From NCBI GenBank assembly GCA_029976025.1, contig JARKNX010000109.1, forward strand, positions 3,085-67,084: a stretch of 64,000 nt of DNA, in the 5' to 3' direction. The notes below the pieces were generated by a model. It saw only the letters and a list, made by a program, of their open reading frames with translations, made no database searches and was not told the origin of the DNA. The translations under genes and the position numbers were made by a program. Shown piece by piece: positions 13,640 to 62,201 of the stretch (positions within the stretch are counted from its first letter, which is position 1; each line of letters opens with the position of its first letter). This DNA comes from Aggregatilineales bacterium. Its GTDB lineage: Bacteria; Chloroflexota; Anaerolineae; Aggregatilineales; Ch27.

Positions 13640-13814
13640 ACACTACGCGCAGGGTAGGTCTGGAATCCGTCACGACCCTTGCAAAACGCCCCCCAACTGC
13701 TTGACAGGCCTCTATTCCAGCTTCGCCTCCAAACCGGCCACATATTTCGCCCACCGTCTAGAACGTACGTGCTAATCTGAAGGCATCATCAGCCGGAGGA
13801 GGAGGGAGGCACGC

Positions 13815-15674
13815 ATGGAGCGGGTGGGTGAGGCCGCCAGGCGCGGCGCGGTCAAGATGATCGGCGAAGGCCGCATCGGCGGCTACCTGATCGTGTGGGG
13901 TGACGACGCTCACAAGGACCTGCACGGCGAATACTTCACGCCAGCGACAGACCTGGCCCTGGACTGGTACGCCCGGCGGCCCGTGCTCTACCACCACGGG
14001 CTGGATGGCGCGATCGGCCCGGCGCTGGTCGGCGTCATGGACGCGCTGCGGGCGGATGAGGTCGGCCTGTGGGCGGAGGCCCAGCTCGACCTGCACCGGC
14101 GCTACACGCGGGCCGTGCGCGATCTGGTGGCGCGCGGGGCGCTGGCCTGGAGCTCCGGCAGCCTGCCGCATCTGGTCGAAGTCGCGCCGGACGGGCGGAT
14201 CAAACGCTGGCCGCTCGTCGAAGGCAGCCTGACCCCGACCCCGGCTGAGCCGCGGCGCACGACAGTGGGGGCCATTAAGGGCGCATACGAGGCGCTCGGC
14301 CTGGACGCGGCGCGCCTGCTGGCTGCCCCTGATGACCTGAACATGACCGACGAAGGAGAAAACGCTGTGAACCGTGACGAAATTGCCGCCGCCGTCAGCG
14401 CGGCGCTGGAAGAACGGGCCGCGCTGGTGGAGCAGACCTCCGCCGCCGAAGCGCCGCACGGGCCGGTCCGCCGCCTGCCCACCGCCGACCCGGCGGAGGC
14501 GATCAAGGCCGGGCCGCGCATCACCGTCGGCAGCCCCTACGACGGCCTGGAGGCGCTGGATATGGCCCACGGCTACGTCATGCTGCGGGCGACGAAGGGC
14601 TTTCGCGGCGTGAGCGAGACCTACGCCAACGCGCTAGCCCACAAGGTCCGCCGGGCCGGGCTGAGCGCGCTCAAGGCCGACGAGCTGAGCACATCCACCC
14701 AGGCCGGCTACGGCGACGAATGGGTGCCCGACCTGTGGAGCGCCGAGTTGTGGCGGCAGGCGCGGCTGGAAAACGTGATCCTGCCCCTGTTCCGGGCCAT
14801 CGAGATGCCCGGCAATCCTTACGAGCTGCCCATCGAAGGGGCCGACCCGACCGTCTACTACGTGGCGGAGACGAACGATGAAGCCGACCTCACGCTGGGG
14901 CCGGGCAACCCCATCCCCGACAGCAAGATCGGCTCCGGCAAGGTGACGCTGGCGGCGCGCAAGCTGGCGCTGCGGGTGGGCTTCAGCGCGGAGCTGGCCG
15001 AGGACAGCCTGGTGCCCGTGCTGGGCATGTACCGTGAGCAGGCCATGCGCGCCCTGGCCGCCGCCATCGACAGCGTCCTGCTCAACGGCGACACTGAGAC
15101 CGGCGCGACCGGCCAGATCAACAGCGACGACGCCGCGCCGCCCGCCGGGGCGACCTACCTGGCTTTCAACGGCCTGCGCAAGCTGCCGCTGGTGACGACG
15201 ACGGCCAACAGCGTCAACGCCGGGGGCGATCCGTCGCTGGCCCTGCTGCGCCAGGTCCGCTTCACCATGGCCCACCGGTACAGCGTCAACCCGTCCCACC
15301 TGGCCTGGATCGTCGATGGCGGCACGTATGCCAAGCTGCTGGGTATCAGCGAGTTCCTGACGATGGACAAGGCCGGGCCGCACGCCACCGCCCTGACCGG
15401 CCAGATCGGCATGGTGGACGGCATCCCGGTGCTGGTGTCGGCGGCGATGCCGCTGACGATGGCCGATGGCAAGGTCAACGCCAGCGGCAACACCAAAGGG
15501 CAGGCCGTGTGCGTCTACCGCCCCGGCTGGATCGTCGGCTACCGCCGCCGCGTCGCCGCCTCGGTGGATTACCTGCCGTACTACGACGCCTACCAGATGA
15601 CGGCCACGGTGCGGCTGGTGCTGGCCCGGCTGGATGCCGACGTGTCGGCGGCGCTGTACAACATCACCGTGTAG
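13815..15674 (+). CDS. Phage prohead protease (HK97/U35-S78 type) fused to an HK97-fold major capsid protein
   Basis: N-terminal ~170 aa are protease-like (GYLIVWG..D.HGEYF, AWSSGS, LVEGSLTPTPAEP). A helical linker follows. The C-terminal ~400 aa are MCP-like (YGDEWVPDLW, PIEG..PTVYYVAE, LALRVGFSAELAEDS, LLNGDTE). Confidence 0.8.
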   Translation: MERVGEAARRGAVKMIGEGRIGGYLIVWGDDAHKDLHGEYFTPATDLALDWYARRPVLYHHGLDGAIGPALVGVMDALRADEVGLWAEAQLDLHRRYTRAVRDLVARGALAWSSGSLPHLVEVAPDGRIKRWPLVEGSLTPTPAEPRRTTVGAIKGAYEALGLDAARLLAAPDDLNMTDEGENAVNRDEIAAAVSAALEERAALVEQTSAAEAPHGPVRRLPTADPAEAIKAGPRITVGSPYDGLEALDMAHGYVMLRATKGFRGVSETYANALAHKVRRAGLSALKADELSTSTQAGYGDEWVPDLWSAELWRQARLENVILPLFRAIEMPGNPYELPIEGADPTVYYVAETNDEADLTLGPGNPIPDSKIGSGKVTLAARKLALRVGFSAELAEDSLVPVLGMYREQAMRALAAAIDSVLLNGDTETGATGQINSDDAAPPAGATYLAFNGLRKLPLVTTTANSVNAGGDPSLALLRQVRFTMAHRYSVNPSHLAWIVDGGTYAKLLGISEFLTMDKAGPHATALTGQIGMVDGIPVLVSAAMPLTMADGKVNASGNTKGQAVCVYRPGWIVGYRRRVAASVDYLPYYDAYQMTATVRLVLARLDADVSAALYNITV

Positions 15675-15709
15675 CGCGCGGCCGCGGTCTCCGTGAAGGG
15701 AGCGATTCC

Positions 15710-16534
15710 ATGATCACCTATGCCACACTGGACCAACTGCGGGAACGGCTGAATATCCCGGCGGGGGACGCGGCGACCGATGTGCGGCTGCTGCGGGCAC
15801 TGCGCGGGGCCACCGCCCAGATCGACCGCTACACGGCCCGCCGCTTCGCCCCGGTCGTGCAGACCCGCCGCTACGACTACCAGACTCCCTACAGCCTGCG
15901 GCTGGACCTGGACCTGCTGGAAGTGCTGGCGGTCACTAACGGGAACGGGGCACCCCTTGATCCGGGGGCGGTGACGCCGCTGCCGGACGGTGACGGCCCC
16001 CGCCACGCGCTGATGATCGCGCCGGGGTCGGGCGAGACGTTCGTCCCCGGCGGCGGGCGGGCGATCGCGGTGCGCGGCATCTGGGGCTGGCACGACGCCT
16101 GGTCGGAGGCGTGGCAGCCCTCCGGCGACGCGGTGCAGGACGACCCGCTGAGCGCCGGGTCCAGCCTGATCGCGGTGAGCGACGCCGACGGCGCGGGCCG
16201 GACCGCTGAACTCTCCCCGCGCTTTCAGCGGGGACAGCTCCTGCGCCTGGACGACGAGTACGCCCATGTGACGGCGGTGGACGCGCAGGCGGACACGATC
16301 AGCGTCATCCGGGGCGTGCGCGGCACGCTGGCGGAGTCGCACCCGGCGGGGACGGCGATTGCGGTCTATGTCCCGCCGGAAGACGTGGTCGCGCTGTGCC
16401 TGCGCTGGGCGGCGTGGCTGTATCAGCAGGTGGATGCCGCCGTCGGGGCCGGGGCGGACTGGCTGTATCCCGCCGAGCTGCCCGGCGACCTGCGGCAGCT
16501 CCTGGCGCCGCTGCGGCTGACGCGCGTCGCGTGA
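15710..16534 (+). CDS. Phage head-tail connector/adaptor (gp6-like N-terminus) protein
   Basis: N-terminus ITYATLDQLRERLNIP..D..LLRALRGATAQIDRYT is typical of gp6-like head-tail connectors. It lies directly downstream of the capsid gene. The internal ATG at 15710 is chosen as the start. Confidence 0.6.
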   Translation: MITYATLDQLRERLNIPAGDAATDVRLLRALRGATAQIDRYTARRFAPVVQTRRYDYQTPYSLRLDLDLLEVLAVTNGNGAPLDPGAVTPLPDGDGPRHALMIAPGSGETFVPGGGRAIAVRGIWGWHDAWSEAWQPSGDAVQDDPLSAGSSLIAVSDADGAGRTAELSPRFQRGQLLRLDDEYAHVTAVDAQADTISVIRGVRGTLAESHPAGTAIAVYVPPEDVVALCLRWAAWLYQQVDAAVGAGADWLYPAELPGDLRQLLAPLRLTRVA

Positions 16535-16562
16535 GCGCGCGCCGTGGCGTAGCGGCGGAAAA

Positions 16563-16597
16563 CAGGAACCGCAAAGGTGCAGAGGGCACGGAGAAAA
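16563..16597 (+). repeat. Intergenic repeat family A, copy 2
   Basis: caggaaccgcaaaggtgcagagggcacggagaaaaaac aligns with 4284-4317 with only a few mismatches. Confidence 0.7.
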
Positions 16598-16661
16598 AAC
16601 AGAAAGGTCCTCTGATAGTTCGAAGCCTGTTCATTCCGTCGAAGTCCCTGACAGAAGGGGC

Positions 16662-17111
16662 CTACCACTGGCGCGGGATGATCCAGCCGTTCTGCACTTT
16701 GTCAAATCCGATGTGCGGGTAGTAGTCCATGGCGTCGGGGGCGGACAGCAGCAGGAGCATTGCGCCGCCCCCGATGGCCGTCCGCACTTCCTCGATCAGC
16801 CGCCGGCCGATGCCCAGCCGCTGGTAGGGCAGTGCCACGGCCAGATCGGAAAGGTAGCAGCAGTAGGAGAAATCGGTCAGGGCGCGGGCCACGCCGATGA
16901 GCTGCTCCTCGCCGTTTTCCGCCGGGAGGTACGCGCCCACGATCAGATTGGCGTGGGCCAGCATCTGTCCGATGCGCGCCAGGTCATCCACCGGGCGGCG
17001 CAGCCCGGCGCTGCGGTAGACGGCGGCGACGGCTTCGGCGGTCAGCGTCGGATTGACGCGGTACAGCACGGCGGCGGGCGAGATGGGCGGCATCGAGTCG
17101 GTGGCTGACAT
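16662..17111 (-). CDS. GNAT family N-acetyltransferase
   Basis: Acetyl-CoA binding motif LAVALPYQRLGIGRRLIEE (Q/RxxGxG/A); 149 aa. Lies on the opposite strand between phage-like genes. Confidence 0.8.
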   Translation of the reverse strand: MSATDSMPPISPAAVLYRVNPTLTAEAVAAVYRSAGLRRPVDDLARIGQMLAHANLIVGAYLPAENGEEQLIGVARALTDFSYCCYLSDLAVALPYQRLGIGRRLIEEVRTAIGGGAMLLLLSAPDAMDYYPHIGFDKVQNGWIIPRQW

Positions 17112-17235
17112 CGGGAATCCTTTTCGGGTGAGAAACGCGCCCTCAACTCTACCACCCGGTGCAGCGGAGACAAGATAAAAGGGCAGATGATTTTTCTGGC
17201 GCTCGCGGCGGTTTGTGTGGGAAAGGCGGAGCCTG

Positions 17236-18768
17236 ATGCGCTACCGGGTGGAAGTGGACTGGAATTCCGACGGCGTTTTTGACGCGCCGGGCGAATCGCT
17301 GACGCGCGACGTGCTCCGGGTCGAGTGGGCGCTGGGGCTGGAGGAGCCGGAGGCATGTATGGCCGCGCCGTCGTGGGCGGTGGTGACGCTGCGCGACCCG
17401 GCCCGCCACTACGCCCCGGAACGCGCCGCCGGCCCGCTATACGGCCAGCTTGAGCCGCGCCGCAAGGTGCGGATCAGCGGCGAGCATGGCGGCGAGACGC
17501 GCGTTTACTTCACCGGCTGGGTGGAGGAGATCGCGCCGGGGCCGGGCCGGACGGCTGTCCTGCGCTGCGGCGGCGTGGAGGCGCTCCTGGCGCGGGCGGA
17601 GGTGTTCCTGCCGCTGCTCACCGCCGGGCGGGCGGACACAGTGGCGGCGGCGATCCTCGCCCGGGTGGCCTACCCCCCGGCCATCAGCGGCTACTGGCTG
17701 CTGGGCACGGCTTGCCTGGGCCGCGACACCCGCCTGCCGGACGTGACGACCTACGCCGAACTGGAGCGCGGCATCAGCGCTTTCGCTTACGTGGGCGACC
17801 GGGCCGGGGTATCGGCCTGGACTGCGCTGCGGGAAGTCGCCGAGGCGGAGCGCGGCCTGTGCTTTGTAGATCGGGGCGGGCGCGTCATTCTGTGGAACCG
17901 GCATCACCTCCCCTGCCGGCGCGACCCGCGGCTGGCGCTGACCGGGCGGGAGGCGCGCTTCACAGCCGCAGTCAGCGGCGCCGATATCGTCAACCGGGCG
18001 GTGATTACCTGCCACCCGCGCGAGGTCGGCGGCAGCCCGGAGGAGCTGTGGGAGCTGCGCGCGCCGCTGGTGCTGCCGCCGGGCGAAGCGCGGACGGTTC
18101 GCGCCCGCTTCGTGGATGGGGCCGGGCTGCCGTGCGGGGCGCTGTCTGTGCTCGCGCCCGTCCCCGGCGTGGACTATCGGGCCAGCGACCGCCCGGATGG
18201 CTCCGGCGCGGACTGCACCGGGAACGTGGCTGTGTCGGTCAAAGCGGGGGGGAGCAGCGCGGCGCTGACCTTCCGCAACGGGGGGGCGCGGCAGGCTTGC
18301 GTGCTGGCCGGGGCGCGGCTGCGCGGCATCCGCCTGATCGACCGCGGGCCGACCGCTGTCGAGCACGCCGACGCCCTCAGCGTCACCCGTTACGGGCGGC
18401 GGACAATCGGGCTGGACCTGCCGCTCCTCTCCAGCCCGGCGGAGGCGGCCCGCCTGGCCCGTCACCTGGTCGTCGAGCGCAGGGATCCGCGCGGGCGCGT
18501 CCGGGAGGTGACGCTGGAGCTGGCGACTTCGTCAGCCCTGCTGCCGGCGGCCCTGGCCCTGACGATAGGGGATTGCATACGGCTGGCAGACCCGGAGACC
18601 GGCCATGACGGCGTCTATTTCATCGTGGGCGAGCGGCACACGCTGGCGCGGGGCGGGGCGAAGCACACGATCGCGTGGACGGTGCGGGCCGCGCCGCCGC
18701 TGCTGTACTGGCAGCTCGGCGTGCCTGGCGCGGGGGAAGTGGGCGCGGCGACTACACTGGGATACTGA
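17236..18768 (+). CDS. Phage tail-like protein (possible distal tail/baseplate component); function uncertain
   Basis: N-terminus MRYRVEVDWNSDGVFD resembles siphovirus-type tail proteins. Sits in a phage structural gene context. No enzymatic motifs seen. Confidence 0.4.
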   Translation: MRYRVEVDWNSDGVFDAPGESLTRDVLRVEWALGLEEPEACMAAPSWAVVTLRDPARHYAPERAAGPLYGQLEPRRKVRISGEHGGETRVYFTGWVEEIAPGPGRTAVLRCGGVEALLARAEVFLPLLTAGRADTVAAAILARVAYPPAISGYWLLGTACLGRDTRLPDVTTYAELERGISAFAYVGDRAGVSAWTALREVAEAERGLCFVDRGGRVILWNRHHLPCRRDPRLALTGREARFTAAVSGADIVNRAVITCHPREVGGSPEELWELRAPLVLPPGEARTVRARFVDGAGLPCGALSVLAPVPGVDYRASDRPDGSGADCTGNVAVSVKAGGSSAALTFRNGGARQACVLAGARLRGIRLIDRGPTAVEHADALSVTRYGRRTIGLDLPLLSSPAEAARLARHLVVERRDPRGRVREVTLELATSSALLPAALALTIGDCIRLADPETGHDGVYFIVGERHTLARGGAKHTIAWTVRAAPPLLYWQLGVPGAGEVGAATTLGY

Positions 18769-18789
18769 GGGCGCGGGGCGGCCGTCCCC

Positions 18790-19704
18790 TTACAGGAACA
18801 GCAGCGCCGTGCCGATGACGGCGACTACGGTGCCCAGAATGGCCCGCTTCGTGATCTTGTCCTTGAACAGCACGCGGCTGATTGGCAGCAGGAAGATCGG
18901 CATCAGGCTGGTCAGCGTCGTCGCTACGCCCAGCGGCGCGTTTTGCACCGCGAGCAGCGCCAGCCACACCCCGACGAACGGGCCGACGAACGACCCCGCC
19001 GCGATATAGCGCAGCGCGTCCGGCTTCTGGCGCAGGAGGCGGAACGTCCCCTGCGCCTGTCCGCCCGGGAGCGCGATCAGCCAGATGGCGGCGGCGGCCA
19101 CCACGACGCGGATCAGGTTGCCGGACAGCGCCGGATACCCCCCCTCCAGCCCGATCCGCGAGGCCAGCATGCCGCCGGCCTGCCCCATGGCCGCCCCCAG
19201 CCCGCACAGCACCCCGATCAGATACCCCCGCCGGGAGGTGACCAGCACCGCGCTCGAATTGCCATTCTGCCGGTCGGCGACGACGATCATAATCCCCCCG
19301 ACCGTCAGGCCGATAGCCACCAGCTCCACCGGGGATAGCTGCTCATCCAGCAGCAGCCAGGCCATGATCGTGCTGAACACCGGGGCCAGCGCCATCAGTA
19401 ACATGCTCAGGCGCGGGCCGATCAGGACAAACCCCTGAAACAGGAAGCCGTCCCCGATCACGTAACCGATGAAGCCGGACAGCCCCATCCAGAACCAGCG
19501 ATAGCCGTCCGCGTCGGCCGGCAGAAAGGTTCCCTGGAGCAGGCGGTGCGTCAACACGACGAACACGACAGCGAACAGCAGGCGGGTGCGGTTGACCACC
19601 GGCGAGCCGACGCGGCGGCCCGACAGGGTAAAAAAGACGGAAGACAGGCTCCAGAAAAAAGACGCGCCCAGCGCGGCCAGTTGGCCGATAGTCTCAGCGA
19701 TCAT
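18790..19704 (-). CDS. EamA/DMT-superfamily transporter
   Basis: About 10 TM helices in two EamA-like halves; 304 aa. Confidence 0.8.
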   Translation of the reverse strand: MIAETIGQLAALGASFFWSLSSVFFTLSGRRVGSPVVNRTRLLFAVVFVVLTHRLLQGTFLPADADGYRWFWMGLSGFIGYVIGDGFLFQGFVLIGPRLSMLLMALAPVFSTIMAWLLLDEQLSPVELVAIGLTVGGIMIVVADRQNGNSSAVLVTSRRGYLIGVLCGLGAAMGQAGGMLASRIGLEGGYPALSGNLIRVVVAAAAIWLIALPGGQAQGTFRLLRQKPDALRYIAAGSFVGPFVGVWLALLAVQNAPLGVATTLTSLMPIFLLPISRVLFKDKITKRAILGTVVAVIGTALLFL

Positions 19705-19989
19705 GCAGCGATACTTTCAGGAGGGACAGCGAAGAGACGCAGTGACCGGGAGTGTACCGCACAATTCTCCGCCGGGGGCGGCAATTATCAAGAATTTGTT
19801 CGCGTTACTGTCAGATCGGAAAATTCCGGAGTACACTGAATATACCGGACTGCAGATTACCAGCGCCGGCGTTAATTCGAACTTCAGCGCACGGCCCTGT
19901 GAAGGTCCGTGTCTGCCCTGTAGTGTCAGATAGCTTTACCGGGATGCGGGCGGTCTTTGCGGCAAGAACGGCTCAGTGAGTCTGATGAT

Positions 19990-30940: not shown

Positions 30941-31291
30941 ATGGCCGATCCCGGAGGGGGTCCCTACATCAATCCTGAGCGGGCTGCGCGGGCCAGCGCC
31001 AGCCTGGCCGATCCGGCGACCGCGGCGGCGGCGGCCAACCTGTTCAAGGCGCTGGCCGACCCGACCCGGGTGCGCATCATCTCTGCCCTGTCTAACACCG
31101 ATCTGTGCGTGGCCGACCTGACAACCCTGATCGGTATGGAGCAGTCGGCGGTCTCTCACCAGTTGCACACCCTGCGCAAGTGGCGGCTGGTGCGGAGCGA
31201 GCGGCGCGGGCGGCTGGTGTACTACCGCCTGGACGATGAGCATGTCCGCGATCTGCTCCAGCGCAGCCTGGAGCATGTGCATCATTCCTGA
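30941..31291 (+). CDS. ArsR/SmtB family metalloregulator
   Basis: LFKALADPTRVRIISAL...DLCVADL...SAVSHQLHTLR. AAGGAGG lies about 8 nt upstream of ATG 30941. Confidence 0.85.
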   Translation: MADPGGGPYINPERAARASASLADPATAAAAANLFKALADPTRVRIISALSNTDLCVADLTTLIGMEQSAVSHQLHTLRKWRLVRSERRGRLVYYRLDDEHVRDLLQRSLEHVHHS

Positions 31292-31299
31292 GGCGGGGA

Positions 31300-31818
31300 T
31301 CAGTTGAGGGAAGGGCCGTGATGATCGTCCGGCGGCTGTCCCCGGGGCCGGAGTTCTTCGACGGCCGGCCATTCGGCGGTGATATCCGCCGGCAGGTCGT
31401 CATCCGCTGCCTTAAATCTGGACGGCTGGTCCGGGGCGCCAGATAGTTTGGCCTTGCGTCCTTTGAATATCTCCGAAAGCACCCACAGGGTGGCCGCGCC
31501 CGCGAACAGCAAAAGATCGTCGAGGACGCGCGGCGGCGGCGTGAGCACAATGACCAGCAGGCCCAGCACGGCCATTGTGGCCGCCAGGGCGCGGAAGGTC
31601 GTGTGCAGCCCCTCCCGCGCGGCGGGATTCAGGGTGCGCTCCAGCCAGGGGACTGGCGGCTGGGAGACGATCATCGCGCCGCAGTGGGGGCAGAAGCGCG
31701 CTTTGGCCGGGACTGACTGGCCGCAGGCGCTGCACTGGCGATCCAGCTCCGCGCCGCAGCTCACACAGAACCGGGCGTGATCGGGATTTTCCTGCTGGCA
31801 ATAGGGGCACGGCTTCAT
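31300..31818 (-). CDS. Double zinc-ribbon membrane protein
   Basis: CPYCQ..FCVSCG and CSACG..FCPHCG, followed by two hydrophobic helices. Confidence 0.6.
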   Translation of the reverse strand: MKPCPYCQQENPDHARFCVSCGAELDRQCSACGQSVPAKARFCPHCGAMIVSQPPVPWLERTLNPAAREGLHTTFRALAATMAVLGLLVIVLTPPPRVLDDLLLFAGAATLWVLSEIFKGRKAKLSGAPDQPSRFKAADDDLPADITAEWPAVEELRPRGQPPDDHHGPSLN

Positions 31819-31887
31819 CGGGCGGACCTTCTTCCAGGACGGCGATGTTGCGCTGATTCGATTATAACACGGGCCGGGGTGTGCTGG

Positions 31888-32457
31888 TCAGGGCCTGACT
31901 CCCAGAATCAGGACCGGCACGTCAATATCGGCGACGCCTCTATGCTCCAGATCCCACACAAACTGTTCGAAATATGAGACGCCCGTTGACATCTGATCGG
32001 CCAGCTCTTTCAACGGCACGATCTCAATCCCGACCTGGATCACCCCCAGATTGCGGAAGATGGTCATCTTGGCGGCTACGTTGTATACCATGAAGGCATA
32101 CTTTCCAAATTGCACTTCCACGCCGACGTTATTTTTGACGAAATCCATTTCCCGGAAGGGGTAGGCAGCCGATTTCTGAGGAGTGTAATCCGCGGTGTAG
32201 TACCCCGTGGGATAGTCACAGTACTCCCGGTGTTTTTTCCAGCCCTTATTGTTGAACGCCTGGGCAAAAGCCTTGTTCAATAGCCGTGGACTATACAGAA
32301 TCCGCCCTGGCATTGTTTTTTCCCGACTCGGCCTGGTCAGGTATAGCCCAGCATCTATCGCAGAGATGATGGCTTCAACTTCAGCCAGCTCCTCCATATA
32401 ACTGGCCGTCAGAGCAGTCTGACCCTGATTGAATGAGTAGATTCCTCCGATACGCAT
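31888..32457 (-). CDS. Type II restriction endonuclease, BglII/BstYI family
   Basis: EMDFVKNNVGVEVQFGKY matches the BglII catalytic block DIDFGKRDTLVEVQFSNY, with the same D/E/Q spacing as BglII Asp84/Glu93/Gln95. C-terminal VPVLILG resembles BglII VPIRLVG. GC is visibly lower than the neighbours. Confidence 0.75.
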   Translation of the reverse strand: MRIGGIYSFNQGQTALTASYMEELAEVEAIISAIDAGLYLTRPSREKTMPGRILYSPRLLNKAFAQAFNNKGWKKHREYCDYPTGYYTADYTPQKSAAYPFREMDFVKNNVGVEVQFGKYAFMVYNVAAKMTIFRNLGVIQVGIEIVPLKELADQMSTGVSYFEQFVWDLEHRGVADIDVPVLILGVRP

Positions 32458-32546
32458 GAGTTCCTCCTGCTGCCCCCGATTATGAAGAGTGATATCGGGT
32501 TTATGGTAAAATACAGCGCACTACATAGTTCTGGTGAGATGCTCGC

Positions 32547-33500
32547 ATGACCAAGCAAATCCAGTTGGGTTTATTTGATGGCGTAACCCCACAAGATTTT
32601 GTGCTGGCCGATCGCTATACCCCTGAAGCGCACGTCACGCTATTTTGTGGAGACCGGTTAATCCTGCTGCGGCAAATCGCAGAATTGGGCGGGAAGGCAG
32701 AGTTGATCATTACGTCACCGCCCTACAATATCGGCAAAGAATATGAGACTCGCACCTCACTGCAAGAATACATTGAAAGCCAGCGGCAGACTATTGCCGC
32801 CTGCCTGAAAATCCTTTCGCCGACCGGCAGCATTTGCTGGCAGGTGGGACACTTCATTGATGGGCATAGCCGGTCCAAAGAGGCGTTTCCTCTTGATCTT
32901 GTCCTGTATCCTGTCTTCAAAGATTTTGGGCTGAAGCTGCGCAACCGCATTGTGTGGCAGTTTGGCCACGGCCTGCACGAAAATATCCGCTTTTCCGGCA
33001 GGCATGAGACTCTGTTGTGGTTCACCTGGGACACAGACGAGTACACTTTCAATCTTGACCCGATTCGGGTCCCCCAAAAGTATCCCGGCAAGCGGGCCTT
33101 TCGCGGGCCGCGTAAAGGACAGCCGTCCGGCAATCCCAAGGGGAAGAACCCCGGCGATGTCTGGGATATGCCCAATGTCAAATCCAACCACATCGAAAAG
33201 ACAGAGCATCCCTGTCAGTTCCCGGTTGCCCTGGTCGAGCGACTTGTGCTTGCCATGACCCATGAGGAAGATCTGGTCGTTGATCCTTACCTTGGGGTCG
33301 GTACAACGGCTGTCGCCAGCGTGCTGCACAATCGCCGCGCTGCCGGAGCCGACATCGAGAGCCGCTATCTGGAGATAGCGCGCGATCGGATCAGCCGGGC
33401 GCGAGCCGGGACGCTCCAGACCCGCCCGATGGACAGGCCCGTCTACGAACCGGGTGAGAATCTGTCTCTGGCGCAGATCCCCGATGAATGGAAAGAGTAA
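32547..33500 (+). CDS. Beta-class DNA methyltransferase (N4-cytosine or N6-adenine; the SPPY motif favours N4-C)
   Basis: Motif IV IITSPPYN precedes motif I VVDPYLGVGTT. Divergent from the BglII-like endonuclease gene, with an 89-bp spacer. Confidence 0.85.
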   Translation: MTKQIQLGLFDGVTPQDFVLADRYTPEAHVTLFCGDRLILLRQIAELGGKAELIITSPPYNIGKEYETRTSLQEYIESQRQTIAACLKILSPTGSICWQVGHFIDGHSRSKEAFPLDLVLYPVFKDFGLKLRNRIVWQFGHGLHENIRFSGRHETLLWFTWDTDEYTFNLDPIRVPQKYPGKRAFRGPRKGQPSGNPKGKNPGDVWDMPNVKSNHIEKTEHPCQFPVALVERLVLAMTHEEDLVVDPYLGVGTTAVASVLHNRRAAGADIESRYLEIARDRISRARAGTLQTRPMDRPVYEPGENLSLAQIPDEWKE

Positions 33501-53603: not shown

Positions 53604-53607
53604 AGGA

Positions 53608-54594: not shown

Positions 54595-54704
54595 TCGCTC
54601 CCTTTGTGTGTGCCTGCTGCTGAACTGCCGGCTGACGCCGGCTACCCTCTATTGGACCGTCGGGGCGTCAGGAATGCAAAAGAAAAGACCGTATCGTCTT
54701 TCTT

Positions 54705-54749: not shown

Positions 54750-54778
54750 CCGGGGATTGTATCCGGGGCGGGCGGGGT

Positions 54779-56193: not shown

Positions 56194-57026
56194 GGCCCGG
56201 GCGGCCTCCCCGGCGCGGCGTCGGCTTCAGTCAGCGCGGCCAGCACGTCGCGGATGCGCAGCGTCGGCCCCGGCAGGCCCAGGGCGCGCCCCAGGGCCAC
56301 GCTGAACGGCTCCGCCAGGCCGGCTTCGGCCAGCAGATCGGGCCGGGCGAAGACCTCCTCCGGCGGGCCGTCGGCCAACAGCTCTCCCCGGCGCATGACC
56401 AGCACGCGGGTCATCTTGGCCGCCAGCCGGAGCTGGTGCGTGACCATCACCGTCGTGCCGCCCGCCGCCTGATGCGCTTCCAGCCAGGCGATCACGCGCC
56501 GCCGCCACAGGCCGTCCAGCCCGACCAGCGGCTCATCCAGCGCCAGGATCGGCGTGTGCAGGGCGGCGATGCTGGCCAGCGCCACCAGCCGCCGGTAGCT
56601 GAAGCTCAACACGGCGGGCGGGTGCTGGGCCAGCGCCGTCAGGCCGAACTGCTCCAGCGTCTCGGCCACGCGAGCGTCCAGCGCCGCGCCGCGCAGGCCC
56701 AGATTGTGCGGCCCGAAGGCGATCTCGGCCCGGGTCGTGGCGCTGAAGAGCTGGTGTTCCGGCTTCTGAAAGGCGAACCCCACCTGGCGGGCCAGCGCCG
56801 CGATAGTGGCCGTCCGCGTATCTACGCCGTTGATCAGGACCCGCCCTTCCTCCGGATGCAGCAGGCCGATCAGGTGGCGCAGCAGCGTGGTCTTGCCGCT
56901 GCCGTTGACGCCGATCAGGGCCACCGACTGCCCGGCGGGGATGGACAGGTTGATATCCCGCAGGATAGGCGGGCCGTCGGGATAGGCGTAGTGGATGTGT
57001 TCTAACTGGATGGCCGGGACGGTCAC
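56190..57026 (-). CDS. ECF/cobalt-type ABC transporter ATP-binding protein
   Basis: Walker A GVNGSGKTT, Walker B ILALDEPLVGLD, H-loop VTHQL. Start is ambiguous: GTG at 57026 or TTG at 57077. Overlaps the ecfT start by 4 nt. Confidence 0.8.
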   Translation of the reverse strand: MTVPAIQLEHIHYAYPDGPPILRDINLSIPAGQSVALIGVNGSGKTTLLRHLIGLLHPEEGRVLINGVDTRTATIAALARQVGFAFQKPEHQLFSATTRAEIAFGPHNLGLRGAALDARVAETLEQFGLTALAQHPPAVLSFSYRRLVALASIAALHTPILALDEPLVGLDGLWRRRVIAWLEAHQAAGGTTVMVTHQLRLAAKMTRVLVMRRGELLADGPPEEVFARPDLLAEAGLAEPFSVALGRALGLPGPTLRIRDVLAALTEADAAPGRPPGP

Positions 57027-57106
57027 GGGCGGTTTGCTCGCTGGCAAAAACCGGTACAGGGTCCCAGTGTACCGCAAACGCCCCGGTTTGCGCCTGATGC
57101 TTTCCG

Positions 57107-57457
57107 CTACCGGGGGACCAGCACCACCACAGCCAGCACCACCAGCACCACCAGCATGATCGCGATCAGGGCCCCCAGCACGATCGCCAGCCGGCGGCTG
57201 GACTTCTTCTGCTGTCCGGGCTTCTTCCCGCCGCCCAGCTTGCGCAGAGCGGCGTTCGCCTTTTCGTGGGCGGGGTCGAGCGCGACCGCCCTTTGCAGGT
57301 GGCGGATAGCATATTCGCGGGTGGGGGCGGCCAGCGCGAACAGGTAGTAGGCGTCGGCGCTGCGAGGGTTGATATCGAGATAGTCGCGCAGCACGGCGTT
57401 GGCTTCATCTTTGCGGCCGGCTTTGATCAGGCTGGCGGCGCGGCGCAGATCGTCGTT
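57107..57457 (-). CDS. Small membrane protein: TPR-like module plus a C-terminal TM helix
   Basis: LIKAGRKDEANAVLRDYLDINPRSADAYYLFA...LDPAHEKANAALRKL, then LAIVLGALIAIMLVVLVVLAVVVLV. Start at ATG 57455-57457. Confidence 0.6.
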   Translation of the reverse strand, partial: NDDLRRAASLIKAGRKDEANAVLRDYLDINPRSADAYYLFALAAPTREYAIRHLQRAVALDPAHEKANAALRKLGGGKKPGQQKKSSRRLAIVLGALIAIMLVVLVVLAVVVLVPR

Positions 57458-57692
57458 CATCAGGGCGCTCCTTTGCGATAAGTCCGCTTCTACTATAGAG
57501 CACTTTGACGTCCAGGCATACTGCGCACCGGTGGGCGGCACGTCCTGGATTCGGGGTATTTCCGGGGAGAAAAGGCTTTGAACTGTGGAGACGAAGGGCA
57601 CGGCGGCTTTTCGCCATTTGACTCCGGAGCGCTGACCGTCATAGACTGAAAACAGTATACACGCAGGCTGATGAGGAAGTGAGGCATCGCTC

Positions 57693-58955
57693 ATGAATCG
57701 GACTGACTCTAACCGGGCCGAAACGCGCATTCTGGCTATCTCAGCGGTCCTTCTGTTCGGGCTGCTCCTGCTGCTGGAGCCGGCCGGCGGCCGCTTCACG
57801 CTGACGTTAGCCATCATCGGGGTGGTCATCTACGCCGTCGCCACCTACCACGCGCTGTGGGCGCTGGCCCACGATCTGCCGCGCGTCTTTGGCGGCCCGC
57901 CGGCTGCGCCGCCCCCGGCCGGGGACGCGCCTCCGGCGGAGCGGAAATCGCGCCTGGCGTTCTTGCAATCGCGCGTCGCCGTGCTGGTGTACGCGCTACT
58001 CGTCACCCTGATCGCGATTGCGGCGGTGCTGCGGGGCGAGCTGACCGCGCCCGCCCTGGAACAAAGCTGGCCCATGGTAGCCCTCAACCTGGTGCAGGTC
58101 AGCCTGGCGCTGGTACTGCTGGCGCTGGTACTCCAGGCGTGGCTCTCCGCGCAGCGGCAGGCTGCGCCCGCCCCCGCGCCCGGCCCGGCAGGGGAGGAAG
58201 CGCCGCCGCCGCCCGACGACGTGCTCTCCCAGATGTGGGCGTGGATCACAATGTTCTTCGGCGGGCTGCTCCGGATAGTCGAAGCGTTTGTCATGATTCT
58301 GGTCAAGACGGTGACAGTCCTCCTGCCTTCAGTGGCGCGCTTCGGTAACGCCGATCGGAAGTATCTCGACAGCCAGAAGGACAACCTGATCAAGACGGCG
58401 CAAGAGCTTAAGCTGAGCGAGCAGCAGCAGACGATTATCAAAGATCGCTGGATCGAGCAGACTATCTGGGCCGGCGGCCGGGCCAATACCGAGCGCGACG
58501 CCAACGAAATTTTCCGCTGGTGGCAGATCGTCCTCGGCGCGTCGATCCCGGTTTTCTCCCTGCTGGGGGAGCCGGGCAACAATGTCGGTCGGGTTCTGGC
58601 CAGCATCGCCGGCGCGTTCGTGGCGATCATCACCTCGGTGCAGCAGTTCCGCCGCCCGGAGGAGCGCTGGCGCCATTACCGGATACTGGCGGAAAACTAC
58701 CTGAGCGAGTTCTGGTCCTATGTCAGCCTGACCGGGCAGGACTATCAGGATGCCCGCAAAGAGGCTGAGGACGCCCTCGAAAAGGCCCGGAGTGCCGGGG
58801 ATACAGAGATGAACCTGCACCGCCTGATGTTCGACCTCTTTGATCGCAATATGACCCGGCTTCAGAAGGAAGAGCTTTCCACTTTCTTCAACCAGACAAT
58901 GCCGGCGCAGCAGGTTCAGCAGGTCCAACAGCCCACCCCGCCGCCAGCGGCGTAG
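57693..58955 (+). CDS. Multi-TM protein with a C-terminal DUF4231/SLATT-like 2-TM domain
   Basis: About 5 N-terminal hydrophobic helices. The C-terminal part (RWWQIVLGASIPVFSLL....ASIAGAFVAIITSVQQFRRPEERWRHYRILAENYLSEFWSYVSLTGQDY) fits the DUF4231/SLATT pattern (2 TM, then F..E.W..YR..AE.L..E...Y...G.Y). Confidence 0.55.
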   Translation: MNRTDSNRAETRILAISAVLLFGLLLLLEPAGGRFTLTLAIIGVVIYAVATYHALWALAHDLPRVFGGPPAAPPPAGDAPPAERKSRLAFLQSRVAVLVYALLVTLIAIAAVLRGELTAPALEQSWPMVALNLVQVSLALVLLALVLQAWLSAQRQAAPAPAPGPAGEEAPPPPDDVLSQMWAWITMFFGGLLRIVEAFVMILVKTVTVLLPSVARFGNADRKYLDSQKDNLIKTAQELKLSEQQQTIIKDRWIEQTIWAGGRANTERDANEIFRWWQIVLGASIPVFSLLGEPGNNVGRVLASIAGAFVAIITSVQQFRRPEERWRHYRILAENYLSEFWSYVSLTGQDYQDARKEAEDALEKARSAGDTEMNLHRLMFDLFDRNMTRLQKEELSTFFNQTMPAQQVQQVQQPTPPPAA

Positions 58956-59043
58956 CGCGCAGTCGCAGTTGCGCATTTTTGCGTTTGGCCCCATGATATA
59001 GGGGTGTGTCCGTGAGGTTTGGGAGACTAGAGGAGAGTACACT

Positions 59044-59154
59044 ATGCCTGACAAGAAGAGCCCCGCCAAGAAGGAAAAGGCCCCGGACAAGAAGGCTCCG
59101 GCCGGCGGCAAGAAGGCCCCTGCCGCTGATAAGAAGCCAGCTAAGAAGAAGTAA
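59044..59154 (+). CDS. Candidate 36-aa lysine/alanine/proline-rich basic microprotein
   Basis: MPDKKSPAKKEKAPDKKAPAGGKKAPAADKKPAKKK. GAGGAGAG lies about 8 nt upstream of the ATG, a strong terminator follows directly, and codons are GC3-rich like the host. Too short for the ORF track. Confidence 0.45.
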   Translation: MPDKKSPAKKEKAPDKKAPAGGKKAPAADKKPAKKK

Positions 59155-59161
59155 TCACACT

Positions 59162-59193
59162 GGCGGCGGACAGATGTCCGCCGCCACGTTTTT
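59162..59193 (+). terminator. Rho-independent (probably bidirectional) terminator between the micro-ORF and the portal gene
   Basis: GGCGGCGGAC-agat-GTCCGCCGCC, a perfect 10-bp stem, followed by ACGTTTTT. It lies 7 nt beyond the portal stop codon on the other strand. Confidence 0.8.
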
Positions 59194-59199
59194 GGGCGG

Positions 59200-60660
59200 T
59201 TAAGCGCCCGCATCCACCCCCCGGAACACCGCCCGCACTTCCTCCGCCGTGCCGGCCAGCCGCAGCCGGGCGGCGATCTCCACCGCCAGATCATCCGGCA
59301 CCGCGTCCACCACGAACGGGCGCTCCCCGGCCTGCCCCAGCCGCCGCAGGGCATAACGCTCCCACTGCTTCAGCTCGCGCCGGACGGCGTCAGCCTGCCC
59401 GGCCTTGATTGCCGGCCCGACTTCGCCGCTCCCGGCGTCGGCGGCCTCGTTGTCTTCGATGGAGATAGCCAGCGCCCCCGGCGCGGTATCCCGCGCCCCG
59501 GAGCCGCTGACCGGCGCGTCTCCCCAGGCGACCGGCGGCAGGTCATAAAAACGGGCGCGAATCTCGTTGATGCTCAGGACCGGGTAGGCCGTGCGGACTT
59601 CGGCCAGCCGGGTGCTGATGTCGGTCGGGCGGATGTCCTCGAAGCTCGCTTCCAGGTCTGGCCCCCAGAAGGGCAGCAGCCCCGCCGTGATCTTGCCGGC
59701 CAGCCGGACCAGCTTGGGCCACAGCGTGCGCTCGATGAAGACACGCTCGGCGATGTGAGCGTTGGCCTCGGTGGCGTTTTCGCTCCACAGGCCGGGCGGG
59801 ATGCCGAAGATGTGGAAGACCTCCTCGCGGTTGAAGCGCCGCCCGTTGAGGAAGTCCACGTCCTGCTGGCTGAGGCCGATGCCCTGCCACTGGACCGCGC
59901 CGCCGCGCAGGAACGCCGTCCGCCGCTCGCCGCCACTGTAGGACTCCCGCCAGTCGCGCTTGATGCGCTCAAAGTCGGCGTCGCTGACAAAGTCGGTGAT
60001 CGCCACGATCCCGGCGGGCACAGCCCGGTTCGCGCCGAAGGTGTCGCGGTTCCAGCGGGCCATGGCCTCGTCGCTTTGCACGGCCAGCCGGGCCGCTTCC
60101 AGCGCGCTCAGGCCGTAGTAGTCGCTGCGCGGGTGCCAGCGGCGGAAGTGGATCACCTCGGCGGCGTCCAGCGAGATGTCGCGCCCGTCGATCGTGTAAA
60201 CGTAGCCGCGCACATGCTCCCGCGCATCGGGCGCGACGGCCACCCGGTCCGGGCGCAGCGGCCAGATCTGGGCCGGCAGGCCGGCGGCATCCCCGGCCAG
60301 GAACCAGTAAGCGTTGCCGGTCAGCTCCAGCATCCCGACCGTCTGCTCGATCAGCTCGAAGCCGCTGAGGGTGGGGTTCGGCGCGGCCAGCAGGCGCTCG
60401 GCGGGGTGCGCCTCCAGCGGCAGGCGGCGCTCCCCCTCGCGGCGGGTGACGTGCACGGGGACGAGGGCGGCGGCCTCGGCGATGCGGTTGACGGCCACAT
60501 ACACCCAGGAGCTGCTCTCATAAACGGCGGCCTGACGCTCGTAGGTGGACAGGGCCGGCCAGGCGAAGGCGTTGTGCTCGGCCATCGCCGCCAGATGGGG
60601 GATGCTCTGCCCCAGGCCGCGGCGGCGGGCAGCGAACAGACGGTCGAACCATCCAGGCAT
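59200..60660 (-). CDS. Phage portal protein (HK97 family-like)
   Basis: 487 aa. Typical portal N-terminal/central pattern (SSWVYVAVNRIAEAAA, NAYWFL, ...GIPPGL...). Adjacent to the large terminase gene. Confidence 0.75.
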   Translation of the reverse strand: MPGWFDRLFAARRRGLGQSIPHLAAMAEHNAFAWPALSTYERQAAVYESSSWVYVAVNRIAEAAALVPVHVTRREGERRLPLEAHPAERLLAAPNPTLSGFELIEQTVGMLELTGNAYWFLAGDAAGLPAQIWPLRPDRVAVAPDAREHVRGYVYTIDGRDISLDAAEVIHFRRWHPRSDYYGLSALEAARLAVQSDEAMARWNRDTFGANRAVPAGIVAITDFVSDADFERIKRDWRESYSGGERRTAFLRGGAVQWQGIGLSQQDVDFLNGRRFNREEVFHIFGIPPGLWSENATEANAHIAERVFIERTLWPKLVRLAGKITAGLLPFWGPDLEASFEDIRPTDISTRLAEVRTAYPVLSINEIRARFYDLPPVAWGDAPVSGSGARDTAPGALAISIEDNEAADAGSGEVGPAIKAGQADAVRRELKQWERYALRRLGQAGERPFVVDAVPDDLAVEIAARLRLAGTAEEVRAVFRGVDAGA

Positions 60661-60779
60661 CGGATTCTCCTTTTGTAGGACCTCACCCCCTGACCCCTTC
60701 TCCGGCAATGACCTCACCCCCTGACCCCCTCTCCGTTGACGGAGAAGGGGGAGCCGGGCGCAACGAGGAAGGGATGAGG

Positions 60780-61955
60780 TCAGGCGAAGCTCACCGGGCT
60801 GCCCATGCGCTGTACGCCCAGCCAGCCCAGCGCCGTCGCAATCACGGTGTCGTCGTGGCCGCCGGAGGGCGCGCCGTAGCGGTACAGGCCGGAAGGCAGC
60901 CGCTCCAGGGTGTAGGCGGCCAGCTCCCCGCGCAGGACAGGGTCATCCAGCAGAGTGACCTCGCCGCGCTCGACAGCCAGCGCCAGCGCCTCAATCAGCG
61001 GCCCCTTGCTCCGGGCGGTGGTGTTGAAGGGGCGCACGGGCAGGCCGCTCTGCTGCAGGGCTTCGATGTTGACGCTGCCGATGCTGTTGGCCTCCGCCCA
61101 GACGATATCGGGCCTCCACCGCTCAACCAGCGCCCGCAGCCGGTCGCGCTGCTGCGCCCAGCCCACCTGGCGGAAGCGATCCAGGGCGACCATCCGCCGC
61201 CGCCCGGCCTCGAACACGGCGAAGACGGTGTAATCGTCCACGCGGCCCCAGTCGATGCCGACGGTGTAGCGCGCGCCGGGGCGGGGGCCTGCTTCCGCCG
61301 CCGCCGTGCAGGCGGCCTCGAGGTCGCGGAAGACCTGCCCGGCATCCTCGATGAAGGCCGCCTCGTACTCCTGCCGGAACCAGCGATCGGGCATCTCCAG
61401 GCGGGCGGCGTCCACCTCCTCCGGCGCGATCAGGGGGTTGCCCAGCGTGGGATGGCTGAAGCTCTGCCAGTCCGGCTGGAGCGGGTCCAGGCCGAGCCGG
61501 TACAGGCGGTGGAACCAGTTCAGGCCGTTGGGGGTGGAAAGGAACAGGGCGCGCCCCCGCCGGTCGGAGAGGGCGGGGCGGATGGCCCCGGTCCACACTT
61601 CCTCCGGCATGAAGGCGGCCTCGTCCAGCACGGCCAGGTCCAGGCCCGCGCCGCGCAGGGCGTCCGGCTCGTGGCCGCTGCGGACCTGAATCTGGCCGCC
61701 GCCGGGCAGGACCACCCGCCGCCGCGTTTCGTCTTTTTCCACCCAGAGTCCGGCCAGGCTGCCCTTCAGGCTCCGCCAGACATCGTCGGCCATGCCGTAG
61801 GTCGGCGCGATCCACCAGCCGGAGCCGCCCAGGCGGGCCGTATCAAGCAGCGCCACCTTGCCCAGCTCCGTCTTGCCCCACCGCCGGCCGCAGGCCACGA
61901 CGCGGAAGCGCGCCGGGTGGGCCATCACCGCCGCCTGCCCAGGGTGGAGCATCAT
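60780..61955 (-). CDS. Phage terminase large subunit
   Basis: Walker A-like ACGRRWGKTE, Walker B-like LAVLDEAAF, and a C-terminal nuclease-like region with DD/D residues (GIDWGRVDDYTV, GGHDD). Start is approximate. Confidence 0.75.
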   Translation of the reverse strand: MMLHPGQAAVMAHPARFRVVACGRRWGKTELGKVALLDTARLGGSGWWIAPTYGMADDVWRSLKGSLAGLWVEKDETRRRVVLPGGGQIQVRSGHEPDALRGAGLDLAVLDEAAFMPEEVWTGAIRPALSDRRGRALFLSTPNGLNWFHRLYRLGLDPLQPDWQSFSHPTLGNPLIAPEEVDAARLEMPDRWFRQEYEAAFIEDAGQVFRDLEAACTAAAEAGPRPGARYTVGIDWGRVDDYTVFAVFEAGRRRMVALDRFRQVGWAQQRDRLRALVERWRPDIVWAEANSIGSVNIEALQQSGLPVRPFNTTARSKGPLIEALALAVERGEVTLLDDPVLRGELAAYTLERLPSGLYRYGAPSGGHDDTVIATALGWLGVQRMGSPVSFA

Positions 61956-62201
61956 GGACCGCACCGTTATAGACGAACTCCCAGCGGATGACGCGGTCGG
62001 AGGCCGGATCGGGGTTCGCCTGGCGTTGGAAGGACTCATCCGCTTCGAGCATCCTGATCACTTCGACGGCGGTCTTGAGCGCCGCGGCGGCCTGGTGCAG
62101 CGGGGCCTCCGCGATCTTGTCGGGCAGCGCTTCGGCCAGAGCCAGCGCGCTCTGGCGCAGGGCGGCGGCGATGGCCGCGTCGGACGGGGCCGGTTTGCGC
62201 A
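61843..62201 (-). CDS. Small helical hypothetical protein upstream of the terminase (possible small terminase/accessory); its 3' end overlaps the terminase gene in another frame
   Basis: ATG 62199-62201 is preceded by GGAGG. The N-terminal ~80 aa are Ala/Leu-rich and helical. The last ~37 codons overlap the predicted terminase start. Confidence 0.3.

Follow-up and report, generated by a model that had tools for sequence, protein, structure and literature searches.

Why does the chromosome of a bacterium of the order Aggregatilineales (Chloroflexota; Anaerolineae) carry phage head-assembly genes in two separate, oppositely oriented places, and do these genes form a functional whole? The question is raised by a stretch of 64,000 nucleotides (contig JARKNX010000109.1 of assembly GCA_029976025.1; here called the window), in which genes for a large terminase (TerL) and a portal protein lie on the minus strand, about 40 kb from genes for a putative prohead protease-major capsid protein fusion, a head-tail adaptor and a tail hub, all on the plus strand. 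Taken together, the phage-derived genes are spread over more than 45 kb (Table 1). The original prediction, made from the nucleotide sequence of this stretch, offered two explanations: a prophage remnant split by one large inversion, or a retained, tail-less capsid and packaging module. Our analysis favours a modified form of the latter. With a probability of roughly 0.62, the genes belong to an ancient, host-inherited, phage-derived set that would make an SOS-induced, DNA-packaging particle with a minimal tail, resembling a gene transfer agent (GTA) or the PBSX element. It would be a phage head/neck/hub system that was domesticated independently, has been scattered to an extreme degree and carries SOS-type boxes.

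The identities predicted for the five open reading frames (ORFs) were borne out by comparisons with Pfam and PHROGs and, for the hub, by an AlphaFold2 (AF2) model searched with Foldseek, the ORFs themselves being checked by frame-specific GC analysis and by scans for protein families (Pfam, PHROGs). The capsid fusion is composed of a protease-like N-terminal domain (residues ~1-165), a hypervariable linker and a capsid domain (~215-619); the Phage_capsid match covers residues 304-552 (E 1.6e-10). The N-terminal match to Peptidase_S78 is sub-threshold (E 1.1e-3, 19.6 bits versus a Pfam cut-off of 21), that to the phrog_80 protease has an E value of 1.4e-4, and a PDB sequence search with this domain returned nothing meaningful. 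His60/61 and the serines of a WSSGS motif are invariant in 20 homologues. PDB profile matches of the capsid protein are T5-type capsids. Its AF2 model, built from a 20-sequence alignment, had a pLDDT of 39.7; the fold is therefore called from sequence only, which points to an HK97 fold for the major capsid protein of the window.

The gene of the head-tail adaptor, described in the original prediction as a connector, starts 35 nt after the capsid gene, with which it is probably co-transcribed. The protein contains an inserted domain (~residues 150-230) also known in phage tail-tip/J proteins (PDB profile matches 8VJH and 8RK3, E ~5e-5). The gene previously described as tail-like, whose ORF opens at GTG 17215 and contains an ATG at 17236, encodes a gp27/VgrG-like hub: its AF2 model (pLDDT 78) matches baseplate hubs of this type in Foldseek (E 1e-14 to 1e-9), with the VgrG-like protein All3320 of AnaCIS (7B5H, 1.7e-14), Mu gp44, T4 gp27, VgrG of the type VI secretion system and siphophage Tal as the top PDB matches. 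For the portal, the best solved relative is the portal of RcGTA (6TE8/6TBA, E 2e-41). TerL, with a likely start at ATG 61955 or GTG 61964, matches Terminase_6N and 6C above the Pfam cut-off and phrog_2 with an E value of 4e-46; its closest solved relatives are the TerL proteins (ATPase plus nuclease) of Thermus phages P74-26/G20c. Both its ATPase and its RNaseH-like nuclease domain have intact catalytic motifs, and Walker A (GRRWGKT), Walker B (VLDE) and the nuclease residues D235/E288/D368-D369 are invariant in 12 orthologues. An encapsulin nanocompartment was also considered and rejected, as there is no Linocin_M18 match and a conserved portal and a catalytically intact TerL are present.

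The small terminase (TerS) had been listed among the missing genes. This part of the prediction needs correction: a conserved TerS-like ORF, overlooked at the time, precedes TerL and overlaps its 5' end by ~110 nt in another frame. A comparison of six window-clade genomes revealed third-codon-position substitutions and in-frame indels, i.e. the pattern of a coding sequence. The window ORF itself has no match in Pfam; it is similar (BLASTP E 6e-5) to a 164-aa ORF placed between TerL and the promoter element described below in locus L129 (numbers with the prefix L denote individual loci). In lineages such as L129 and L130 the ORF at this place is ~165 aa long and has a weak N-terminal helix-turn-helix (HTH) match (HTH_23/HTH_Tnp_1 in L129), as expected of a small terminase. 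The similarity of the window-clade ORF is confined to the C-terminal two-thirds of that protein, and it lacks an HTH. The TerS-like ORF and TerL are likely overlapping genes; less probably, a programmed frameshift fuses the two. Within the overlap (61843-61955), selection appears to pass from one frame to the other near CATGATGCTCCACCCTGGGCAG.

Homologues of these proteins are numerous. For the capsid fusion 982 were found, the best 120 of which are full length and 59-80% identical; all named sources among these best homologues are Chloroflexota/Anaerolineae, and several are on contigs of megabase size. The portal has 608 homologues, the top ones (54-79% identical) in Anaerolineae. Looked up by exact sequence, the window capsid gave nothing beyond a 3-kb contig, and the portal gave no record. 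A pattern scan of GTDB, with one genome per species, identified capsid relatives in at least 271 species genomes named Anaerolineae, Aggregatilineales, Phototrophicaceae, Ardenticatenia and others, including complete chromosomes of 3-6 Mb. The decayed orthologues that would have refuted the original prediction were not seen for these genes: among the fetched loci 95 of 98 capsid orthologues are intact and three are cut by contig ends, none being broken; 21 TerL orthologues are intact and 5 cut by contig ends, and the hub has 50 intact orthologues. A complete prophage of which these genes could be duplicates was not encountered either.

The congruent ancestry of capsid, portal and TerL was upheld by correlations of protein distances, with Mantel r values among the components of 0.89 to 0.97 (capsid-portal 0.90, portal-TerL 0.92, capsid-hub 0.97, capsid-adaptor 0.89; p=0.001). 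Capsid distances are also correlated with those of host genes (RecD2 0.85, M24 aminopeptidase 0.78, TipAS 0.75, MFS 0.67; p=0.001), and the capsid evolves more slowly, its mean p-distance being 0.148 versus 0.245 for RecD2 and 0.183 for M24. Between the window and its closest relatives, dN/dS (NG86 method) lies at 0.16-0.33 in the case of portal, TerL and capsid; the adaptor has values of 0.33-0.45 and the hub of 0.44-0.60. All of these are overestimates because the GC content of third codon positions is near 0.9. It is very probable that the gene set is conserved, vertically inherited and under selection. It shows those general hallmarks of GTAs that can be read from sequence data: it is fixed in the chromosome, lacks mobility genes, is transmitted vertically, experiences purifying selection and apparently has control of the host type.

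The organization of the set varies greatly between genomes. We examined ±10 kb around the capsid gene in 80 species: TerL was never present (0/80) and the portal gene once (L027; 1/80), a further case (L007) having been fetched separately, while the adaptor follows the capsid gene in ~54/80 and the hub in ~46/80 cases. In 44 loci the adaptor is separated from the hub by host MFS and TipAS genes, and 27 loci have RecD2 upstream; this neighbourhood represents stable chromosomal synteny. Portal neighbourhoods were studied in 80 loci from metagenomes. A canonical, contiguous order TerL-portal-capsid-adaptor-p150-hub-p167 (p150 and p167 being genes of ~150 and ~167 aa, see below) is found in a few distant relatives (L146 and L155/L156), and the same order with host-gene inserts of ~4 kb in L134, L139 and L142. 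In the window clade the TerS-like/TerL/portal unit stands alone, and at many other loci the portal gene does so. In GCA_020634115.1 the portal and the capsid gene each stand alone among housekeeping genes, at a distance of 85 kb from each other, and in L007 and L195 single genes are separated by unrelated host genes.

Three window-clade genomes have both loci on one contig, and each is arranged differently. The loci are convergent and ~40 kb apart in the window, divergent and ~53 kb apart in GCA_015657915.1, and co-directional in GCA_054665515.1, where the capsid locus comes first and 10 kb of host genes lie in between. In GCA_054665515.1 the portal gene is followed by a PD40 pair and sugar ABC/LacI genes that in the window are inside the intervening segment, and the TerL-portal-PD40 block of the window is inverted relative to this genome; therefore, inversions with a breakpoint between the hub and TerS did occur. 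These inversions reshuffled an already dispersed, non-canonical set. The idea of a single inversion inside a prophage, whose reversal would restore the canonical gene order, had to be abandoned in view of the three arrangements, the lack of any TerL-capsid linkage in the 80 species and the unmarked junctions. The inverted repeats or recombinase sites suggested for the latter were not found: regions 13501-13900 and 58801-59300 share only chance 7-8-mers and none longer than 8 nt. The prediction that the intervening DNA is ordinary chromosome proved correct, since annotation of its ~40 kb revealed RecO, ABC exporters, an FGGY kinase, a sugar ABC transporter with LacI, PD40 proteins, Dak1 and ECF components. 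There are no tRNA genes in the window.

A 19-nt element, TCTAGAACRTACGTGCTAA, is present in two copies, and no more, in the 64 kb: one is upstream of the capsid gene and the other upstream of the TerS-like/TerL operon. Written as TCTAGAAC(G/A)TACGTGCTAA and with up to 3 mismatches allowed, it still gives only two matches (0 expected by chance). The capsid-side copy consists of a LexA-box-like imperfect palindrome, GAAC-N4-GTGC, and an extended -10 (TGcTAATCT), and the matrix consensus derived from relatives, tAGAACATnnGTGCTAnnnT, has the same structure, in that its imperfect palindrome, GAAC-N4-GT(G/T)C, overlaps with an extended -10 (TGnTAnnnT). Counting as boxes those sites that score above the 99% background level, we found the element upstream of 81 of 96 capsid orthologues, as well as upstream of TerL operons (7/20), portals (7/71) and p167 genes (3/9). 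The ~2.7 Mb of loci contain 109 strong sites (>=24 bits), 96 of which precede capsid, TerL, portal or p167; the remaining ones mostly precede the TerS-like HTH ORF upstream of TerL in other lineages. The TerL-side box is at the same place in L006, L089-L092 and L146, and the solitary portal gene of L194 is also boxed. This shared element, together with the intactness of the genes in hundreds of species and their co-evolution both with each other and with host genes, supports the earlier suggestion of a retained, domesticated capsid and packaging module.

A full-length lexA gene is located 3 kb upstream of TerS/TerL in GCA_015657915.1 (L089 2922-3662). Its promoter reads TTGACA-CCGAACGACAGTTCTAC-TATACT, with a box between -35 and -10, and is followed by CTAGAACTGATGTGCGAG; the two boxes, GAAC-N4-GTTC and TAGAAC-N4-GTGC, are of the type matched by the window element. 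In its spacing and half-sites the element agrees with the Gram-positive-type LexA box, which is used also by Dehalococcoides, likewise a member of the Chloroflexi. Moreover, genes of 73-90 aa encoding only a LexA DNA-binding domain adjoin TerL or the portal gene in three lineages (L006 4627-4848, L101 ~4625-4807 and L157 ~11247-11456), with CAGAACTTTTGTTCC upstream of the one near TerL in L006. These small genes and the neighbouring lexA could be dedicated regulators of the system. No perfect GAAC-N4-GTTC box is present in the window, which ends 1.6 kb beyond the TerL box, so that a lexA counterpart would lie beyond its edge, and no recA gene was found among the fetched loci. We infer that the element serves as an SOS operator at the promoters of the head and packaging genes, and consider LexA control of the capsid and terminase promoters fairly probable. 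Several phage relatives of the system in IMG/VR carry a similar GAAC-N4-GTGC-TAnnnT element (L180 ~629, L186 ~1384, L190 ~1763 and L192 ~609, upstream of the portal gene in the last case); therefore, the box may predate domestication. The adaptor genes of Phototrophicaceae (L036, L039, L040 etc.) are preceded by a different conserved sequence, TAAC(T)...TAACAC(A/G)GGC, ~90-110 nt before the start in a divergent intergenic region, which may be another control site.

The description of the module as tail-less requires correction. Neither tube nor tape-measure genes were found, as claimed; on the other hand, the gp27-like hub has been kept, and relatives have two further small genes of neck- and fibre-like type. 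One of these, p150, lies directly upstream of the hub in 49 loci of relatives and shows a weak match to a tail-terminator PHROG; it is also weakly and collinearly similar to the gene placed after the adaptor in the phage cousins. The other, p167, follows the hub and has a tail-fibre-like N-terminus (MAWTTPKTW..G..VTA.DLN..LRDNL). PDB profile searches with both gave no significant match. Tube, tape-measure, sheath and lysis genes were not seen near any of the ~190 loci, in keeping with the prediction that tail and lysis genes are missing, and the Pfam content of the annotated flanks includes no genes for integration, replication or lysogeny. In the simplest structural model, the capsid would be closed by the adaptor together with a small ring protein and a trimeric hub that bears short fibres.

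The phage cousins in IMG/VR are HK97-type siphophages with protease-capsid fusion, portal and insert-bearing adaptor of the same families, in the same order and in some cases with a similar box. They differ in that their modules are contiguous and include a tail tube and a tape measure (the latter seen in L169, IMGVR_UViG_3300025327_000057, the cousin examined in detail), and no hub of the p517 type was found in them within 10 kb. Their capsids are only 36-57% identical and 700-780 aa long, apart from one partial match (L189, 137 residues, 61%). The wider protease-capsid family comprises 944 clusters at E<=1e-30 in a library clustered at 50%, and its members are mostly of 700-1000 aa, with a long middle domain in the viral ones. 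In comparison with these, the Anaerolineae capsids are only ~600 aa long and therefore represent a compact, non-viral subclade of a phage family.

On this basis the following history and mode of action can be proposed. The set would stem from one HK97-type siphophage-like ancestor with the gene order TerS-TerL-portal-protease/capsid-adaptor-(~150-aa neck)-hub-(~167-aa fibre-like), which lost its genes for tail tube, tape measure, lysis, integration and replication. Rearrangements of the host genome would then have scattered the remaining genes, in some lineages to single-gene loci, the two opposed loci of the window being one arrangement among many. At least the capsid(-adaptor) and TerS-TerL(-portal) units would be driven by a shared promoter overlapping a LexA-type box. 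DNA damage would lead to cleavage of LexA and de-repression of the head and packaging genes; proheads would form on the portal, mature by means of the fused protease and be filled with DNA by TerL, after which the adaptor and the trimeric gp27-like hub would close the particle and provide its minimal tail. Since the window-clade TerS-like protein has no DNA-binding HTH, sequence-specific packaging is improbable, and host DNA is the probable cargo. The TerS protein of RcGTA (gp1) is reported to have no DNA-binding domain either. We give an even chance to the production of DNA-filled particles, and regard a function in gene transfer only as a tentative proposal.

Several observations weigh against such a system. 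Nearly all relatives are metagenome-assembled genomes. Co-regulation covers only part of the set: no box was found upstream of the adaptor (0/69), p150 (0/48) or the hub (0/55), and only 7 of the 71 portal upstream regions pass the threshold. The assignment to LexA is based on similarity of the box and on a single lexA promoter. A GNAT gene running on the opposite strand separates the hub gene of the window from the capsid operon, and p150 and p167 are absent from its 64 kb. No holin or endolysin gene that could account for the release of particles was seen near any locus. The dN/dS of the hub (0.44-0.60) indicates only moderate constraint. Finally, in the adaptor gene of GCA_015657915.1 (L193 ~9590, NPIE01002122.1) a CAG codon (Gln) has become an in-frame TAG, and the gene is called as two ORFs of 141 and 118 aa; this nonsense codon could reflect decay in that lineage or a sequencing error.

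This nonsense codon, the absence of most phage functions and the inversion of the TerL-portal-PD40 block relative to GCA_054665515.1 are what one would expect of a decaying, functionless prophage remnant split by a recent large inversion. We nevertheless consider such an origin of the window's gene arrangement extremely improbable, because at least 271 species have intact orthologues, the capsid has changed at a lower rate than the flanking host genes compared with it (these include RecD2 and M24), and all five genes show a dN/dS below 1. Moreover, the loci are already apart, in differing arrangements, in relatives, the promoter/operator is conserved at both loci and the junctions have no repeats. 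A family of satellites or prophages that repeatedly infects Anaerolineae, i.e. an active mobile element, appears just as implausible. It would account for the phage-type genes and for their GC content of 71-74% versus a window mean of 66%; however, the ABC exporter genes reach 73%, and the phage genes are thus inside the host range (the earlier statement that their GC is host-like is valid in this sense, and not in that of equality with the window mean). No integrase or att-type repeats were found, single genes are embedded among housekeeping genes, the flanking host synteny is conserved, the distances correlate with those of host genes, and IMG/VR contains no full-length capsid match above 57% identity (the partial match of L189 at 61% spans 137 residues). 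An alternative to which we assign a low but appreciable probability is a domesticated set that depends on infecting phages or interferes with them, whether by borrowing helper tails, as do capsid-forming phage-inducible chromosomal islands (cf-PICIs), or as an SOS-triggered decoy diverting phage DNA or parts. The lack of tube, tape-measure and lysis genes would fit such a role, as would the IMG/VR siphophages with compatible adaptor and portal families (some of them similarly boxed) and the TIR-domain, SLATT/DUF4231 and toxin-antitoxin-like genes that recur beside the loci. These defence-like neighbours are, however, not positionally conserved, while the retained hub and the fibre-like gene of relatives point to a minimal tail that is autonomous; genes for an integrase, for replication or for helper sensing were not seen, and dispersal excludes self-packaging of a discrete element. 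cf-PICIs also have their own terminase, portal, protease/capsid and head-tail connector without a full tail, and an HNH gene adjoins the capsid locus of the window. They differ in being discrete, mobile, self-packaging islands with integrase, regulator and replication modules. Membership in this group, or in satellites generally, was rejected because no flank contains integrase, regulator or replication genes, the packaging genes lie apart from one another and the host synteny has been preserved.

The same particle might instead serve as an SOS-induced killer or as a device for the release of extracellular DNA, as in the case of PBSX. PBSX is a contiguous, myovirus-like element of ~28 kb that is SOS-inducible and has genes for a sheath, a tube and lysis as well as a repressor of its own. 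Like PBSX, the Anaerolineae set would be a host-retained phage-like particle system with SOS induction and non-specific packaging of host DNA, and its LexA-type boxes directly on structural promoters and the retained hub/spike suit such a role. It differs in that its genes are dispersed, whereas PBSX-like elements are contiguous, and in that no contractile tail (sheath, tube) or lysis genes were found. A killer or DNA-release function seems unlikely on balance; sequence alone cannot separate it from the GTA-like reading.

The GTA-like reading draws on the features common to RcGTA, BaGTA, VSH-1, Dd1 and VTA: phage-derived head and packaging genes that are chromosomally fixed, vertically inherited and under purifying selection, without genes for integration or replication, distributed over several loci and apparently controlled by the host. 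The Anaerolineae set is scattered far more, down to single genes, and has LexA-type boxes directly on structural promoters. The RcGTA portal is the closest solved relative of the window portal. The set would have arisen independently in another phylum; its capsid is T5-like and its TerL P74-26-like, protease and capsid are fused, and no tube, tape-measure, Dit or megatron genes were found. The possibility that it belongs to the RcGTA-like family was therefore rejected, only the portal being closest to RcGTA and no tube, tape-measure or g12-g15 set being found. The literature that we searched in full text contains no description of GTAs or of capsid, portal or terminase genes in Chloroflexi, Chloroflexota, Anaerolineae, Aggregatilinea or Phototrophicus. 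It is conceivable, and we put it forward with due reserve, that this is the first GTA-like system of Chloroflexota. It would be an independent domestication of at least seven unlinked genes, whose products would form a capsid that is SOS-induced and filled with DNA and has a minimal tail lacking a tube (adaptor, ~150-aa ring, gp27-like hub and small fibre). Only shared LexA operators would unite these genes, and the loss of the DNA-binding domain from TerS would result in the packaging of random host DNA.

Few lineages are known to have GTAs, tailocins, PBSX or other domesticated phage particles, whose genes nearly always form one or a few clusters; the Anaerolineae set is class-wide and yet dismantled. 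Prophage and GTA finders based on clustering will miss such systems, and the absence of these capsids from IMG/VR is consistent with this. The loci form a natural series, from contiguous order to full scattering, for the study of how a host takes over the regulation of a phage module, and they predict a new, very reduced tail architecture. The set is also a candidate for stress-induced DNA exchange in an environmentally dominant and poorly studied group; if confirmed, it would imply stress-induced horizontal transfer or kin killing in the filamentous Anaerolineae of wastewater sludge, sponges and sediments.

Table 1. Phage-derived genes, control elements and adjoining features of the window (64,000 nt)
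Feature	Position	Strand	Remarks
Prohead protease (putative)/HK97-fold (predicted) major capsid protein fusion	13815-15674	+	619 aa; Pfam Phage_capsid, phrog_10
Head-tail adaptor	15710-16534	+	274 aa; phrog_442 E 8e-16
Tail hub/central spike, gp27/VgrG/Tal-like	17236-18768	+	510 aa from ATG 17236; AF2 + Foldseek
Portal	59200-60660	-	486 aa; Pfam Phage_portal E 2.4e-63
Large terminase TerL	60780-61955	-	391 aa; Pfam Terminase_6N/6C, phrog_2
TerS-like small ORF	61843-62202	-	119 aa; coding pattern + BLASTP
Putative promoter/operator element, copy 1, TCTAGAACGTACGTGCTAA	13757-13775	+	~40 nt upstream of capsid ATG
Putative promoter/operator element, copy 2, TCTAGAACATACGTGCTAA	62366-62384	-	~160 nt upstream of TerS-like ORF
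Bidirectional terminator hairpin	59161-59186		11 bp, 9 G-C; just past portal stop codon
Two-gene cassette, 129-aa gene + HNH endonuclease	12837-13639	+	58% GC
GNAT acetyltransferase gene	16662-17111	-	between adaptor and hub
Lys/Ala/Pro-rich 36-aa ORF MPDKKSPAKKEKAPDKKAPAGGKKAPAADKKPAKKK	59044-59154	+	good ribosome-binding site; convergent to portal gene

Some further features of the two loci deserve mention. The strong terminator predicted after the portal gene is indeed present, and the hairpin is common to this gene and to the convergent 36-aa ORF. Repeat scans of both loci gave only GC-rich noise, apart from a tandem repeat in the TerL-portal intergenic region (60679-60735): two direct copies of 26 nt, GACCTCACCCCCTGACCCC(T/C)TCTCCG, 96% identical and with a spacing of 31 nt, fill most of the gap. 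Rfam gave zero matches across the window, and a structured leader RNA of TerL was dropped as a candidate (fold z-score -0.66).

Besides the TerS-like ORF, the original prediction had overlooked the HNH cassette and the GNAT gene. The cassette ends 118 nt before the SOS-like box of the capsid gene; its 129-aa protein has no family match, and its gene overlaps (GTGA) that of a 138-aa HNH endonuclease (Pfam HNH, 1e-10). Three related loci, L045, L069 and L074, have weak matches to HNH motifs ~500 nt before the capsid gene. The endonuclease as a part of the system is unsupported, given the low GC content of the cassette and the lack of any relative of the 129-aa partner in the other loci; the cassette may be either a selfish insertion or tied to packaging. 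The GNAT insertion splits an adaptor-hub unit that is one operon in GCA_054665515.1, and the same insertion is found in L011 (60% identity) and L014.

Neighbours of defence or signalling type are a recurrent feature of the phage-derived genes. The window has a gene for a DUF4231/SLATT protein (57693-58955, plus strand) by the portal gene and one for a TPR protein (62436-63992, minus strand) by TerS; in relatives the adjoining genes encode TIR_2, TIR-TPR and TIR-HEAT proteins (L002 8061-9821; L006 3000-4421; L139 13102-14577), and HicB-like, Uma2 and nucleotidyltransferase toxin-antitoxin-like genes are located inside the clusters of L004 and L146. Between the two loci of the window, just before recO, there is an island of low GC content (~31000-33500; 58% versus 66%) with two ORFs, at 31888-32457 on the minus strand and 32547-33500 on the plus strand.

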